64,000 nucleotides of DNA from Planctomycetota bacterium (GTDB lineage: Bacteria; Planctomycetota; UBA11346). A program made the position numbers. Below are positions 18,001 through 39,000 of the stretch, one piece after another; the stretch's first letter is position 1; every line of letters starts with the position of its first letter. Where the stretch lies: NCBI GenBank assembly GCA_038231435.1, contig JBBRLJ010000022.1:30575-94574 (forward strand), read 5' to 3'.

Positions 18001-21000
18001 GACGGCCAGCGCTCCGACTCTGCGAAGTCTGCGATCACCCAGTGGTTGGCCGCTCGCGGCGTGGCGCGCGCGACCACCACCTGGCGCCTGCGCGACTGGG
18101 GCATCAGCCGCCAGCGCTACTGGGGCAACCCGATCCCGTTCGTCTACGGTGAGCGCTCGGGCGCGGTGCCGCTGCGCAAGCAGGACCTGCCGGTGACCCT
18201 GCCTGACGACGTCGCCTTCGACGGTGTCGGCAATCCGCTCGAGAAGCACCCGTCCTGGGCGACCACCGGCAACGACGGCAAGCCATTGACCGTGCGCACC
18301 GCGCAGGGCCCCGAGGCCGCGCGCCGCGAGACCGACACCATGGACACCTTCATGGAGTCATCGTGGTATTTCGCGCGTTTCACCTGCGCCGACGCGGCCA
18401 AGCCGTTGGACCGCGCGCGCGTCGACCACTGGCTGCCGGTGGATCTCTATATCGGCGGCATCGAGCACGCCGTCCTGCACCTGCTGTACGCGCGCTTCTT
18501 CCAAAAGGCATTGTGCGATGTCGGCTACAGCAGCAGGCGCGAGCCGTTCAAGCGCCTGCTCTGCCAGGGCATGGTCACCATGGAGACCTACTCGCGCCCT
18601 GGCGAGGGGGGCAAGCCGGTGTGGTTCTACCCCGACGAGGTCGAGGTCGAGAAGGATCCCAAGGGCAAGGTGGTCTCGGCGAAATCCAAGGCCGACCGCC
18701 GCGACGTGGTGGTGGGCCGCGTCGAGAAGATGTCGAAATCGAAGCGCAACACCGTCGATCCGCAGCTGCTGATCGATCGCTACGGCGCTGACACCGCGCG
18801 CTTGTTCGTGCTCTTCGCCGCTCCGCCCGAGCGCGACCTGGAGTGGAACGAGGATGGCGTCATCGGCCAGCATCGCTTCCTCAAGCGCCTGTGGACGCTG
18901 GTCCAGGAGCAGAAGCAGCGGCTGGCGGCGGTGGCTCCGTACGCCGGCGCCGCCAAGGACGTGGCGGGCGCCGACCAGGCGGTGGTGCGCAAGATCCACG
19001 CCACCATCAAGCGCGCCACCGATGCGATGGAGAAGGATTTCTCGTTCAACACCACCATCGCCGCGTGCATGGAGCTGTCGAACGAACTGAAGCCCGAGGC
19101 GCTGTCGCCACCGGTGCTCAAGCAGGGCCTGAACACGCTGGTGCGCCTGCTGGCGCCGATGGTGCCGCACATCTGCCACGAGTTGTGGGAGGATCTGGGT
19201 GGTTCCATCGGGATTTCGGCGGCTTCTGGTCCATCAGGTGGCGATCTCACCGCCGCCGGCTGGCCGAGCTACGACGAGACCCAGATCCAGACCGACGACG
19301 TCGACTATCCGGTGCAGATGCAGGGCAAGGTGCGCGCTCGCATCTCGCTGCCGCGCGCCCTGACCGGGCCAGCGCTGGATGCGGCGGTGCTGGCGCACCC
19401 CGACGTGGTGGCGGTGATCGGCGATCGGCCGGTCAGGAAGCTCATCGTCGTGCACGGCAAGATCGTCAACCTCGTCCTCGGCTGAAGCTCGCACCGCGCA
19501 GGGGTGCGCGCCGGTTGTCGCCATGCATCGATCGACATATGCTTCCATCAAGGGAGACCGCGATGGCGAAGGTGACATTCGGCAAGACCACCACCGAGGC
19601 CGAGCCGGGCCGCGATCTGCTCGGCGTGCTGCTCGATGCCGGCGCGCCGATCAGCTACATCTGCATGGCCGGATCCTGCGGCACTTGCCGCGTGCGCGTG
19701 CTCGCGGGCATGGCGCACCTCGCCGGAGCCACGCCGGCGGAGACCTACCACGCCATCGACGTCGCGGGTGGCGACCGCCTTGCCTGCCAGGCGGTGTGCC
19801 TCGGCGACGGCGACGTCACGGTGACCCAGGAATGAGCTGCTCGGCTTCGACTTCGCCGCGCACATCGCCTAGCATCGATATCATCACAGCGATGGGGTCC
19901 ATATCGACCTCAGCTAGACGCATCATTCGTGAGGTCGCAATGCCGTCCTTCACAATTGCATCACTTCCCAAACTGTGGCGTAGTTTACAGTTGCATTGAG
20001 TTGCACGAAATAGCAGGATGCCGCCACTCGGAGGGCGGCGTGACGATCCATCGGCTGTCTCCCAAAAACCAGGTGACCGTACCCCGCGAGGCGCGCGCGC
20101 TGTCCTCGTGGGGAGCGCCGTCGCCTGGTGCCGAGGCAGCCACCATCCAGCACCTGCGCGGCCGCCGCCACGTGGTGCGCAAACCCGAGAACGGCGAGCA
20201 GTTCCGCATCCTGCTGCTGATGACCGAGATCGAACTGCAGAAGACCGAGAGCCGCATCAGCGCCAACGCCAAGCTCACCGACGACGAGAAATTCGCGGTC
20301 GTCACGCGCCTGAACGACGCGATGAAGACCATGGCCATCGACGCGCAGAACCGCGTGGTGCTTCCGGCCGAGCACATCGCGCACCTCGCCCTCGGCGAAG
20401 GCCGCGACCTGAAGTTCGTGTGCACGAACTCGATGATCCAGATCTGGAATCCCGAGCATTACCAACGCTACGCCAATGACGTCGAGCCGACGTACGACGC
20501 GCTGCTCAACACTCACCTCTTCGATTCTCATTGACGCACCACGCGCAAGGAGCCCCCCCCATGATCGATCCCGCTCTCAACCGCCTGCTCTCGGCCCTCG
20601 ACTCTCTGGTCGACGTGCCGCCGCGGGAACTCGCCTGCGACATCGACGAAGCAAACCTGCGGCTACGCCGCATGGCCCGCTTCGGCGTGCTCGCCGACAA
20701 CAGCCCGTACGTGGCGTTCATCCGCCGCGTCCTCGATGACAAGCGCCACGCCGCCTACGCCGCCAGTGCCTGATCCCGAGGCGTCCTCCCTGCACCGACC
20801 GGTGCTGCTCGTCGAGACGATCGAGCGTCTGCGGCCGGCGCCGGGTGAACGGGTGCTCGACTGCACCCTGGGGCTGGGCGGACATGCCGAGGCCATCCTC
20901 GAGCGCGGAGCCGACGTGCTCGGCATCGATCGCGACCCGCGCGCACGCGCGCTCGCGAGCGCCAGGTTGGCGAGGTTCGGTCAGAAGCTGATGGTGCGCG

Positions 21001-36000: not shown

Positions 36001-39000
36001 CGACAAGGCCGAGGCGATCAAGCGCGAGCTCGACATCGGCGTCTACGCGGGCGCCGGCGACGGCCCGCAGGGGCAGCAGTTCATCTGGAACGATCTGCAG
36101 GAGCGCCACGCGCTGCTGGGCCCGGCCACCGAGATCTGCGCCGACGCGGTCAGCTCGTTCTTCAAGGAGCGCGCGCGCGACCTACGCGATCACGGCTACC
36201 TCGCCCAGCAGGGGCAGATCCACCTGGTGGGACGCTCGAGCGCCCTCGGCGGGCTGGCTCTGCACCTGCGCGAGATCTTCGACCTGCCGGTGCTGCTCGG
36301 CACCGGCGATCGCAATCGCCAGCCTGGCGACGAGCTGGACGGCCTGCTCACCACCGGGCTGGTCTGCGCCGCCGGCGACCACCGCCGTGAGCGCCTGGCC
36401 CTGCATGCTGGCAGCCTGAGCAAGCGGGCGAGCGGCGTGTGGTCTTGGTTGACGCATGCGCTCAGCTGAGGGGTGAGGGGGCGAAAAGCAGAAAGCAGAA
36501 AGCAGAAAGCAGACATCCGGCAATCCCGCGGCCACGGCGGCGGGAGTCCGGATGGTTCCATACGCAGCGTCTGCATCAGGAGATGTGGCTGGAAACCCAA
36601 TGGGAAAAGACCCGTAACAAATGCCCCCGCGGTGCCGATACCGGTAGCCGAGGAGCGTCGTTTGGCCGTCCACCGTCGATCCATCCAGAATCCTTCCGCC
36701 GGGCCACGCTTGCGTGGCGGCCGGGGCAAGGCCAGGCTCGTGGCCAGGTCCGGGGTTCGGGAGCGGGGTCCGCGTGAGGCATGCCATCCAGGGTCCGTGC
36801 CTGCTTCGCGGTCAACACCCGGGCATCCTACGGACACACGCGTGAGCGGGCCGCTCGACCACGCCTCAGACGCCTCAGACGCCTCAGACGCCGATGACGC
36901 TGCTGACGCGTCCGGACTCGGGCCGAGCCAGGCGGCGGCCGAGGCCTTCACCCGCCACTGGATCCGCTGCCAACCCAACATCGCCGCCTACATCCGCTCG
37001 CTGGTCCCGCAGATGCACGATGCCGAGGATCTGCTGCAGAACGTCGCGGTGGTGATGCTGCGCAAGTTCGCCCAGTACGATCCTGAACGCCCGTTCCTGC
37101 ATTGGGCGCTGGGCATCGCGCGCAACGAGGCGCTCGGCCACCGGCGCTCGCACGCGACGCAGCGCCTGGTGCGGAATGCCGATCTCGCCGAGGTGCTGGC
37201 CGACGCCTGCGAGGAGGTCGCTCCCGAGATGGACGAGCGCCTGGGCGCACTGTCGCGCTGCCAGGAGAACCTGCAGCCGCGCGCGCGCGAGGTGCTGCGC
37301 CTGCGCTACCAGGATGCGCTGTCGCCGCCGGACATCGCCACGCGCATGAAGATGTCGCATGGCGCGGTCCGCGTCGCCTTGACGCGCGCGCGCGCGGCGC
37401 TGATGGCGTGCATCGAGCGCGGGCGCGCCGCCATCGGGCTCGATACCTTGGATCCGTCCGTCGATGATCCCTTTGACGACGGGAGCAGAGCATGAACCTC
37501 CCCGCGTTCGTCGAAGCCTACCTCGATGGCGAAGCGGATGATGCGCAGCTCGACGAGCTGGCCGCGTGGCTGCGCGAGGATCGCGAACATCCACGCGTCT
37601 TCATGCGCGTCCTGCGCCTGCACCACGCGCTGCGCGAGGGGCACCTCGGTGCCGTCGCGACGGATGTCGTTGGCGCCATGGACGGTACGGGCGTCACGGA
37701 AGAAGCCGTGAGAGTGGAGACCGCCAGGGTGGCTCGGAGACCGGCCATGCGGCTTCTGCCACGCCGGCGCCAACCCCAACGACGCGAGCGCGGGTATTCG
37801 CGATCCTTCGCCGTGATCGCCGCCGCGGCGTGCCTGATGCTGGGCATCCTCGGCTATCTCGCCCTGCCATTCCACGGTGACCGGGTGAACGATCTCGGCC
37901 CGGTCATCGCCGAGATCACGGCGCATGCCGCAGACGACGCCATCGTCTGGCGGCGTCCAGCGGCGGAGCCGGTGGACGCCGCCGCGGACGTCCACGCCAA
38001 CGAGCGCACACCGTCGGCCGCGGATGATTGGAAGTCCGAGCGCATGAGCGGTCCGGCCTCGGCCGATGCCCGCCTGCGCGCCGGGGACGTGGTGGAGAAC
38101 CGCAGCGACACGGTGGTCACCGTATCGTTCGTGGGCGAGGCGACGCGCGTATCCCTGCGTCCGCGCGCGTGCGTCGAGTTCGATACCGGCAAGCCCGGCA
38201 AGCTCGTGGTGCTCCACGCCGGAGCCTTCGACGCCGTAGCGGCCAAGCAGCCGGCCGGCGAACCGATGGCCTGCATCGGCCGCTTCGCCACCGCGACCAT
38301 CATCGGCACGACCTTCTCCCTGATCGATGCCGGCAGCACCACTCGGCTCGAGGTGGCCGAGGGCCACGTGCGCTTCACCCCGACGGTCGAGCCGGCCAAG
38401 GAGCCCATCGACATCGAGGTCGCCGCCGGTGAGTTCGCCATGGCCGGCCCGACCGGCAAGGACCTCGTCCGGCCCCGGTCGGATCCGACCTCGGATCTGA
38501 CGAAGGCGCTGGTGTCGAGCGGACCCGCCATCGTCGACCCCACCGTGGAAACGGGCCAGCCGCCCGCGGGAACCGGGAACATCTGGGCGCCATACTGGTC
38601 GCGTTGGAAGCATGCCCTGCCCGCGGATCCTGCGTTCTTCCCCATCGCGGTCTGGCTGCAGGCTCCAGAAATGGCACGCGATTACCACGACGTGGGTGTG
38701 AACCTCTACCTCGGATTGGCGAACGGACCCACCGAATCGCAGCTGTCGATGCTGGCAGCCGCGAGCATGCGGGTGATCTGCCCGCAGAACGCCGTCGGCC
38801 TCGCGCATCGCGACGACCCGCAGATCGTCGGCTGGATGTACGAACGTACTCCGGACAACGCGCAGGATGCGCCCGCGGGAGACTATGGATCGTCGATCGA
38901 GCCCGACCTGGTGGCAGAGGCGTGCCGCGCGATCCGCACCGCTGATCCGACTCGGCCGATCTACATGAACTTCGGCCCCGGCGCCGCGTATACCCCGTGG

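Follow-up and report, generated by a model that had tools for sequence, protein, structure and literature searches.

What does FtsA do in a bacterium in which FtsZ cannot be found? The question is raised by a planctomycete of the uncultured class UBA11346, in whose genome the dcw cluster runs from mraZ to ftsA and then stops, inside the window analysed here (64,000 nucleotides of contig JBBRLJ010000022.1). The answer that we favour, with little more than even confidence, is that the cluster is a functioning dcw operon in a planctomycete lineage that makes peptidoglycan and lacks FtsZ, and that the operon closes with the gene of a derived FtsA, which acts independently of FtsZ.

An operon that ends at ftsA

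The dcw genes form a single tightly packed operon (window 20040-36469, all on the + strand), in which neighbours overlap or nearly abut and intergenic spacing is at most 88 bp. The gene content, order and strand given in the survey's finding are borne out, as is the ECF sigma factor that follows. The genes are arranged as follows.

20040-20534, +, mraZ, divergent (PF02381 28.5 bits, cut-off 23; weak to four NCBIfam MraZ models, best E 6e-10)
20531-20773, +, small ORF of 80 aa between mraZ and rsmH (no Pfam or NCBIfam match)
20736-21647, +, rsmH (mraW) (TIGR00006 252.7 bits, cut-off 154.3)
21671-21955, +, FtsL-position ORF, 94 aa, N-terminal TM helix then coiled-coil-like segment (no family match)
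22009-23865, +, ftsI, class B PBP (PF00905 202.5 bits, PF03717 62.8 bits)
~23862-25364 (start approximate), +, murE (TIGR01085 322 bits, cut-off 257)
25361-26824, +, murF (TIGR01143 341 bits, cut-off 289)
26818-28038, +, mraY (TIGR00445 297 bits, cut-off 192)
28090-29274, +, ftsW, SEDS (PF01098 324.6 bits; TIGR02614 331.4, slightly below cut-off 337.5)
29308-30579, +, murG (TIGR01133 249.9 bits, cut-off 250.25; two GT28 Pfam domains)
30576-32090, +, murC (TIGR01082 403 bits, cut-off 335)
32093-33028, +, murB (PF02873 99.6 bits; NF010480 217 bits, under cut-off 259)
33117-34097, +, ddl (NF002378 256.5 bits, cut-off 243)
34094-35206, +, ftsQ, identity from fold (PF03799 19.8-20.8 bits, cut-off 21)
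35252-36469, +, ftsA, divergent, 405 aa (SHS2_FTSA 35.7 bits, cut-off 25.4; PF14450 35.8, cut-off 31.8)
36470-36841, intergenic gap at the usual ftsZ site, (GCAGAAA)x4 near its start (~36484-36514)
36842-37495, +, ECF sigma factor (TIGR02989 149 bits, cut-off 124.55)

The sigma factor gene, whose start near 36842 was placed from its domains, lies 373 bp beyond ftsA and outside the cluster; in a tblastn comparison of the class loci it was found after ftsA in this genome only. No terminator-like or promoter-like site was seen in the gap. The contig runs 27 kb past ftsA, so the missing ftsZ is not a contig-end effect, and in a second sample one contig (X2, record 13), identical to window 36400-36672 (0 differences), spans the short repeat downstream of ftsA that breaks the X1 unitigs. 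The mraY-ftsW interval lacks murD, which lies, as previously stated, on another contig (G000:C20:4307-5554, 278.9 bits, cut-off 211.95).

Two genes that family models leave unnamed or nearly so can be placed by other means. The gene before ftsA, previously called FtsQ from its position, is a genuine FtsQ as judged by its predicted fold: residues 112-370 were modelled by AF2 with a pLDDT of 91, and every one of the ten best Foldseek matches from the PDB is an FtsQ (E 1e-7 to 2e-4). The protein comprises a ~115-aa cytoplasmic tail with conserved basic motifs, one TM helix, and POTRA and beta domains. For the 94-aa ORF, position and architecture suggest FtsL; it recurs at the same position in four class genomes, with 37-49% identity. 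The 80-aa ORF also has a counterpart in the same place in one relative, G003 (tblastn, 39% identity, E 2e-6).

Comparison within the class supports an intact and conserved cluster. The order mraZ...ddl-ftsQ-ftsA is retained in four of the five class genomes fetched at length, and ftsQ stands immediately upstream of ftsA in 27 of 35 loci; in some genera ftsA is separated from the cluster (G029) or lacks an adjoining ftsQ (L107 and L120-L124). What follows ftsA varies from genome to genome, with no gene conserved there. The survey had set this class apart from the planctomycetes as usually described by its retention of both cluster and FtsA, but comparison with the rest of the GTDB phylum shows that it is not unique: eight other families also retain ftsA, and in four of the families examined (f16, f46 and the FtsZ-bearing f58 and f76) largely intact dcw clusters likewise terminate in it, as seen in tblastn searches that missed mraY except in f16 and mraZ in most families.

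A strongly derived FtsA

Orthologues of FtsA were found by protein search in all 48 class genomes and all 18 genera; the SHS2_FTSA domain had earlier been counted in 18 of 21 class genomes, a figure that was right about retention and too low. The gene is under purifying selection (dN/dS 0.04-0.31 in eight pairs). Its AF2 model (pLDDT 86) shows the FtsA fold, with FtsA structures 7q6i, 7q6f, 3wt0, 7q6d and 3wqu as the best Foldseek matches in the PDB (TMq 0.64-0.71, TMt 0.66-0.75), at only 11-20% sequence identity to solved FtsAs. We considered the type IV pilus protein PilM, whose actin-like fold also carries an additional subdomain resembling that of FtsA, and rejected it: PilM structures match the model less well (TMq 0.48-0.57, TMt up to 0.66), the Pfam model of PilM reaches 24.4 against a cut-off of 27, matches to PF11104 and TIGR01175 are weak, and the neighbours of the gene are dcw genes, not pilNOPQ. 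Two orthologues carry the NCBI name PilM.

With canonical FtsA (E. coli, T. maritima, S. aureus; PDB 7q6d, 4a2a, 3wqu), the class protein shares the actin-like fold with its 1C (SHS2) subdomain, the C-terminal tail and a gene that follows ftsQ and closes the dcw cluster. It differs in lacking an FtsZ partner and the phosphate-1 motif DxG[TS], in reading GR for the GG of the adenosine motif, and in scoring 81 bits on the NCBIfam equivalog TIGR01174, under its cut-off of 175.85. The FtsAs of families f12, f87, f76, f58 and f46, which belong to the same phylum and whose dcw order likewise ends ftsQ-ftsA, keep DxG[TS], and those lineages keep an FtsZ-type gene. Within the class, subdomains 1C and 2A are best conserved, and residues 267-281 (2B region) form a variable loop of low model confidence. 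The tail, ASGVWSWL, has an invariant W399 and a near-invariant L400 among 26 orthologues; its hydrophobic moment is modest (0.34) and its confidence in the model low. This FtsA is strongly derived: its branch is long and the phosphate-1 ATP motif is gone, while a Trp-rich tail is kept.

Such divergence raises the possibility that FtsA has been repurposed or has become dispensable, either as a nucleotide-dead actin-fold protein (regulating wall synthesis, for instance, or partnering MreB or FtsK) or as a gradually decaying remnant headed for the loss that most planctomycetes have undergone. The lost phosphate-1 motif and altered GG could indeed reflect a changed or decaying function, and they go with a stem branch of 2.47 substitutions per site in a quick tree and with scores of 153-182 bits on a general FtsA profile, where f12, f87, f76 and f46 reach 334-410 and f58 ~240; ftsA has also left the cluster in some genera. 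Furthermore, in the sections of PMC12283558 available to us, the dcw genes of Planctopirus limnophila are non-essential, ftsK excepted, and gene conservation is therefore no proof of a division role. Retention in every genome at such low dN/dS, on the other hand, means that FtsA is not decaying, and its usual place beside ftsQ and the conservation of 1C, 2A and the tail also speak against the idea, which we regard as possible, though unlikely.

It is very unlikely, in our judgement, that the class acquired its FtsA from outside the phylum by insertion at the cluster end, instead of keeping an ancestral planctomycete gene. In the quick tree it falls outside a clade (SH-aLRT 99) that joins the FtsAs of all eight other families and groups loosely with two metagenome proteins; however, the long branch makes this placement unreliable, an AU test does not reject monophyly of all planctomycete FtsAs (p 0.373, lnL difference 2.95), the gene occupies the ancestral position after ftsQ, and no near donor was found: beyond the class subfamily, scores drop from 341 bits to 128.

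The search for FtsZ

The survey had reported no FtsZ/tubulin domain in five genomes, and the wider search extends this to the whole class. PF00091 (Tubulin), which finds its target in 13 of 14 reference genomes, gives no match at E<=10 in the genome studied (87.6% complete, 108 contigs) and none over cut-off in 48 class genomes, including the seven that are at least 90% complete; FtsZ_C and Tubulin_2 likewise give 0/48. A profile built from six planctomycete FtsZs finds no FtsZ in the 48 genomes (best E 0.00125). A ten-sequence profile that includes degenerate FtsZs finds none in the 26 class genomes of a phylum sample (four first-look candidates scored per genome) and nothing at E<=50 among 55,191 six-frame ORFs of this genome, none of which ends in the FtsA-binding C-terminal peptide motif of FtsZ. 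No FtsZ-like reading or remnant follows ftsA, either in this gap or in 35 class loci. These results support FtsZ being undetectable in all 48 genomes, an absence that is statistical in kind, since all are metagenome bins (the best 96% complete).

Other families show why several profiles are needed. FtsZ or a degenerate FtsZ-like gene occurs in six of the eight other ftsA-keeping families and adjoins ftsA in five; an FtsZ-type gene lies directly 3' of ftsA in f12, f46, f58 and f76, and on a separate contig in f87. Four families (f12, f58, f76, f87) have FtsZ above the Pfam cut-off. The degenerate FtsZ of f46 fails PF00091 and is recognised only by a match to FtsZ_C (31.4 bits) and by its C-terminal peptide (of the form ~Y[ED]G.[ND][LIV]D[VIT]P[TA][FY][LI]R in these families), and the remnant of f56 is seen by the lineage profile only. 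PF00091 by itself, on which the survey had relied, is thus insufficient, and the statement in the accessible passages of PMC12673574 that no planctomycete has kept ftsZ does not hold for GTDB Planctomycetota. FtsA without FtsZ is confined to the UBA11346 class and two other families.

The survey's own caveat of a very divergent FtsZ accordingly has substance, since in f46 and f56 FtsZ has diverged past what PF00091 recognises, and a tubulin-fold protein may lie beyond the reach of profiles; in the class, wider profiles found none. That an FtsZ was missed, through unassembled parts of an incomplete bin or extreme divergence, and that FtsA still tethers an FtsZ-like polymer, is nevertheless highly improbable, given four kinds of profile without a match, the empty result in this genome and the class loci of a lineage profile able to pick up both the f46 and the f56 form, the implausibility of chance loss of a single-copy core gene from all 48 bins, and the want of a conserved gene 3' of ftsA, of the binding peptide and of FtsZ partners. 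Over cut-off, ZapA, SepF and MinC each score 0/5 in the five most complete genomes, and no FtsB/DivIC match was found. Together with the relocation of murD and the lost phosphate-1 motif, this makes the earlier statement that only FtsZ was removed too narrow.

A possible role for FtsA without FtsZ

Kept under selection where FtsZ is undetectable, FtsA must act without it, and its description as an FtsZ-independent protein stands. We envisage that the conserved, Trp-containing tail fixes FtsA to the cytoplasmic side of the membrane, where the protein serves, perhaps as a polymer, as a scaffold or activator for the operon's own division-specific wall synthase, contacting FtsQ, the FtsL-like protein and FtsW-FtsI. 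With the phosphate-1 motif gone and GG changed to GR, it is probably a weak or non-hydrolysing structural protein and not a dynamic ATPase. The remaining wall growth would fall to MreB and a second SEDS protein: MreB, FtsK and two SEDS genes are present in each of the five most complete genomes, the second SEDS paralogue always away from the dcw cluster.

Known FtsZ-less bacteria offer partial parallels. Chlamydia, in the portions of PMC11975371 and PMC4643143 at hand, also divides and builds septal wall without FtsZ, relying on MreB and FtsK, and keeps FtsQ/L-like proteins and peptidoglycan synthesis; ftsA is reported to be missing from Chlamydiota "with few exceptions" (PMC12283558, section 13), whereas the present class, known from sediment and soil metagenomes and not obligately intracellular like Chlamydia, keeps it universally. 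P. limnophila and the budding Planctomycetia are described as lacking FtsZ and FtsB (PMC12673574, PMC12283558, excerpts); P. limnophila also lacks ftsA, and its dcw genes are scattered, judging by the locus tags in Table 1 of the latter, whereas here the cluster is contiguous and ftsA retained. In this class, FtsA must function without the protein that it normally anchors.

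Layout of the dcw operon and of the region beyond ftsA

The canonical dcw cluster runs mraZ-rsmH-ftsL-ftsI-murE-murF-mraY-murD-ftsW-murG-murC-murB-ddl-ftsQ-ftsA-ftsZ. Compared with it, the cluster studied here holds the same genes in the same order, minus ftsZ, which was not found, and minus murD, which lies outside the cluster on contig C20, as the survey's finding had stated. The features of the window are as follows.

20040-36469, + strand: dcw operon, fifteen tightly packed reading frames, with mraZ in the frame from 20040
26811-29354: 847-aa spurious open frame spanning mraY and ftsW, no family match
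34094-34438: predicted cytoplasmic tail of the FtsQ-position protein, about 115 residues
35252-36469, + strand: ftsA, last gene of the operon
36484-36514: (GCAGAAA)x4 repeat, beginning 15 bp past the ftsA stop
36842-39744: ECF sigma factor (TIGR02989) and 750-aa FecR/DUF4880 protein
39798-42398: 866-aa ORF joining SBP_bac_1 solute-binding and BPD_transp_1 ABC permease domains

Several of the fifteen frames overlap by 4 bases and the widest gap between them is 88 bp. Pfam and NCBIfam scores are strong for rsmH, ftsI, murE, murF, mraY, ftsW, murG, murC, murB and ddl, and mraZ scores 28.5 bits with PF02381 (cut-off 23). Two short ORFs, one of 80 aa between mraZ and rsmH and one of 94 aa in the FtsL position, the latter with a transmembrane helix and a coiled-coil-like segment, match no Pfam or NCBIfam family; both are present at the same places in relatives of the class (tblastn). 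Long spurious frames that overlap real genes, such as the one across mraY and ftsW, are to be expected with the window's G+C content of about 69%. The central observation of the survey, an intact mraZ-to-ftsA cluster without ftsZ, is confirmed, with fifteen frames in place and with FtsZ profiles passing their cut-offs in none of 48 genomes.

Those 48 species-level genomes, from 18 genera, make up the class (the UBA11346 lineage) in our collection, where it consists of one family. In 27 of 35 class loci ftsA follows ftsQ as the last (3'-most) gene of the cluster. Some genera have ftsA apart from ddl-ftsQ (L073, L107, L120-L124); at one of these loci (L073, G029:C34) it stands between a 1291-aa surface-repeat protein and rmuC, the remaining cluster being on another contig. 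At a further locus (L075, G014:C7) rsmH, murF and mraY each appear in two or three tblastn pieces of differing frames, which points to frameshift errors of that assembly.

Beyond ftsA, 373 bp precede the ECF sigma factor and its FecR-like partner, a pair that tblastn locates after ftsA in the own genome (the source bin of the window) only, and in neither of the two genomes of the same genus. A consensus scan of window positions 36300-37000 gave neither a terminator nor a promoter. Unitigs of one sequencing run (X1) end and begin at the (GCAGAAA)x4 repeat, where 31-mers reach depths of up to 500; a contig from a second sample of the same study (X2) bridges both the repeat and the downstream junction of ftsA with no differences. 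The 866-aa ORF further downstream could be a fusion; alternatively, two separate genes may have been run together by reading from an upstream GTG.

The search for FtsZ

Because the own genome is an incomplete bin (108 contigs, 87.6% complete), the search for FtsZ was extended to the whole class. No genome of the 48 exceeded the cut-off for Tubulin (PF00091; best E 0.01, with 13 of 14 controls detected) or for FtsZ_C (PF12327), and Tubulin_2 (PF13809) was likewise found in 0 of 48. A planctomycete FtsZ profile built from six sequences reached only E 0.00125 (19 bits) in the best of the 48 genomes and returned nothing in the own genome. A wider profile was needed because in f46, another family of GTDB-Planctomycetota, the gene directly 3' of ftsA fails PF00091. 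With degenerate FtsZs included, this profile matched none of the 26 class genomes of the phylum sample, four first-look candidates being scored per genome, and none of 55,191 six-frame ORFs of the own genome at E<=50.

In the canonical system, subdomain 2B of FtsA is the part that binds FtsZ's C-terminal peptide; the motif of this peptide ends no ORF of the own genome, and no FtsZ remnant was found around ftsA in 35 class loci (best E 0.37). Three further observations agree with the absence of FtsZ. First, the gene 3' of ftsA varies: the own genome has an ECF sigma factor there, G003 a glycoside hydrolase, G014 a cyclophilin, and G001 and G045 have unnamed ORFs. Second, searches of the five most complete class genomes found no ZapA, SepF or MinC. 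Third, the downstream junction is bridged by the contig of the second sample. An FtsZ that is present in the class and was missed might be argued for from the incompleteness of the bin and from the failure of PF00091 in f46; set against the wider profile, the peptide search and the 35 loci, we consider it very improbable.

Identity and divergence of FtsA and FtsQ

The product of the last gene scores 35.7 bits with PF02491 (SHS2_FTSA; cut-off 25.4) and 35.8 bits with PF14450, above the cut-off of 31.8, and reaches 81 bits with the NCBIfam equivalog TIGR01174, below its cut-off of 175.85. Its AlphaFold2 model (pLDDT 86, pTM 0.83) has the actin-like fold with the SHS2 (1C) subdomain inserted in domain 1. 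Compared with the PDB by Foldseek, ranks 1-19 among the matches listed are all FtsA (TM 0.64-0.75); solved FtsA structures come first (TMq 0.64-0.71, TMt 0.66-0.75) and PilM structures second (TMq 0.48-0.57, TMt up to 0.66). The names given to the orthologues vary among public sources: "hypothetical protein", "PilM" or "FtsA".

FtsA is kept under selection, yet much changed. Orthologues occur in 48/48 class genomes at 38-79% identity, and dN/dS lies between 0.04 and 0.31 in eight pairs. When a profile of 26 orthologues was run against 1.84 billion representative proteins, 19 proteins were recovered at E<=1e-30, beyond which scores drop from 341 to 128 bits. This drop sets class FtsA apart as a small, isolated subfamily, and its nearest relatives outside the class are unnamed or Omnitrophota proteins. 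Its distance from ordinary FtsA is seen in the following table, in which the HMM was built from 119 ordinary FtsAs picked by similarity to the class profile, so that any bias favours the class.

Table. Scores of planctomycete FtsAs with the general FtsA HMM (family; FtsZ status; bits)
f12; FtsZ present; 410
f87; FtsZ present; 391
f46; degenerate FtsZ; 350-386
f76; FtsZ present; 334-367
f58; FtsZ present; about 240
f16; no FtsZ; 180-214
f30; no FtsZ; 199
f56; FtsZ remnant; 125-182
class; no FtsZ; 153-182

The nucleotide-binding motifs of the actin/Hsp70 superfamily are phosphate-1 (DxG[TS]), phosphate-2 and the adenosine motif (GG), and class FtsA lacks the intact set. In an alignment of 164 FtsAs phosphate-1 is missing from the class, where the segment reads 'VIvliSS.rV' and neither the Asp nor the Gly is conserved; it is altered in the FtsAs of f16 and f56 too. 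The adenosine motif reads 'HLVGR', with GG changed to GR, and D209, G211 and T215 of phosphate-2 are invariant in the class. Subdomains 1C and 2A are the most conserved parts of the protein within the class, and the C-terminal tail 'ASGVWSWL' is conserved, with W399 invariant. This tail is a putative amphipathic membrane helix (hydrophobic moment 0.34); the model gives residues 397-401 as a short helix, at pLDDT below 50.

In a quick tree the class has a stem of 2.47 substitutions per site and falls outside a clade of all other planctomycete FtsAs (SH-aLRT 99). A single clade of all planctomycete FtsAs is not rejected by the AU test (p 0.373), so that vertical descent, with an accelerated rate, is still the simpler explanation.

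The identity of the preceding gene as FtsQ had been based on position. Its product scores 19.8-20.8 bits with PF03799 (FtsQ_DivIB_C), below the cut-off of 21, that family matches only 3/21 class orthologues at E<0.01, and searching the PDB with a profile of the FtsQ orthologues yielded nothing useful. An AlphaFold2 model built on 21 orthologues, with the wrong-frame row from L075 left out of the alignment, has pLDDT 91 and a transmembrane helix at residues 4-25 of the modelled part. Its best ten Foldseek matches in the PDB are all FtsQ (E 1e-7 to 2e-4, TMt 0.50-0.63) and span the POTRA and beta domains, in keeping with the bitopic FtsQ/DivIB architecture. Judged by this modelled fold, the gene is ftsQ, and the positional assignment is borne out. 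The cytoplasmic tail carries two basic motifs common to genera, 'LLxAAERKR' (L14, R20) and 'ARKR' (R70). A predicted complex of FtsA with the 112-aa FtsQ cytoplasmic tail scored 0.37, 0.00 and 0.00 against a mark of 0.32, which gives no verdict either way. FtsQ ORFs of FtsZ-bearing families look shorter, at 284-315 aa, in a small sample with approximate starts.

The five best class genomes also hold MreB and FtsK, and besides the SEDS gene of the cluster each has a second one elsewhere; a division-type synthase (FtsW-FtsI, FtsQ and the FtsL-like protein) therefore coexists with an elongation-type one. In the mechanism that we propose, FtsA would be held on the membrane by its C-terminal tail and would serve as a cytoplasmic scaffold or activator of the FtsW-FtsI synthase, contacting FtsQ and the FtsL-like protein; it would act without FtsZ and probably without ATP turnover.

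FtsA and FtsZ across the Planctomycetota

The FtsZ-less division of planctomycetes is an open question, and in the reviews FtsA counts as lost together with FtsZ. Passages of one review state that ftsZ was lost in all planctomycetes and ftsA "in most" species (PMC12673574), and a passage in Henriques et al. allows "few exceptions" for ftsA and alr (PMC12283558). A literature search on planctomycete MAGs that have both FtsA and FtsZ returned only the review already cited, which says nothing on the matter.

In an even sample of 401 Planctomycetota genomes of at least 80% completeness, SHS2_FTSA occurs in 56, namely 23 of the class and 33 of eight other families (f12 2, f16 2, f30 1, f46 10, f56 9, f58 2, f76 6, f87 1). 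Tubulin (PF00091) passes its cut-off in f12, f58, f76 and f87, nearly always directly 3' of ftsA, the exception being f87, where FtsZ is encoded on another contig. The wider profile matches all ten f46 genomes and one f56 genome, again directly 3' of ftsA. The f46 protein, of 357 aa, has lost the tubulin signature, which reads 'SAFTGREE'; only FtsZ_C (31.4 bits) and the FtsA-binding C-terminal peptide "VYDGENLDIP[TA][YF][IV]R", which it keeps, identify it. The f56 remnant has neither signature nor peptide. By this profile, FtsA stands without anything FtsZ-like only in the class, f16 (0/2) and f30 (0/1). The view that FtsZ is gone from the whole phylum is thus untenable, and tubulin-domain screens under-call FtsZ in GTDB-Planctomycetota.

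The FtsZ-type genes of these uncultured families lie at L055-L059, L062-L066, L079:17780-18853, L080:691-1761 and L077:17839-18831; the ORFs first picked at L063 and L065 lay in wrong frames and were left out. Two other kinds of sequence were seen. In f86 (L061, L064) the match to PF00091 over the cut-off is an unrelated tubulin-family protein of 445-460 aa, with a Lys-rich N-terminal extension and a context unrelated to ftsA; at L060 (G265:C220) a 553-aa open frame begins like the N-terminus of a canonical FtsZ ('GIGGAGGNA') and continues as unrelated sequence, which could reflect a fusion, a truncation or a chimeric assembly.

Families f16, f46, f58 and f76, too, have largely intact dcw clusters with ftsA at the end; the cluster of f56 is partly rearranged. 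What stands of the earlier interpretation is thus that FtsA works here without FtsZ, and what falls is the class as sole keeper of the cluster. By tblastn mraY was found in f16 and in none of f46, f58 and f76; the five non-class loci that lack a match have a gap of about 0.3-1 kb between murF and ftsW.

A series of FtsZ loss might run from FtsZ over the cut-off (f12, f87, f58, f76), through an FtsZ that lacks the GTPase signature and keeps the peptide (f46) and a remnant without the peptide (f56), to none (class, f16, f30). The fullest form of our proposal is that FtsA has become FtsZ's replacement organiser in a free-living bacterium, a membrane-bound, nucleotide-dead actin-fold polymer that would mark and drive septal wall synthesis, in a phylum with living intermediates of FtsZ loss; as a whole we regard it as rather doubtful. 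If true, it would make the order of events in a bacterial loss of FtsZ reconstructable and testable.

All class genomes examined retain the entire wall and division operon together with FtsA, and the FtsA of the class is a defined candidate for organising septal wall synthesis independently of FtsZ. The class is furthermore a natural experiment that bears on the parts FtsA needs without FtsZ, the tail, 1C and 2A being kept and the phosphate-1 motif lost. The FtsZ or decayed FtsZ of the uncultured families, adjoining ftsA in all but one, may matter more than the finding in the class itself: these genes contradict the published loss of ftsZ in all planctomycetes and challenge the statement that the last planctomycete ancestor was already without it.
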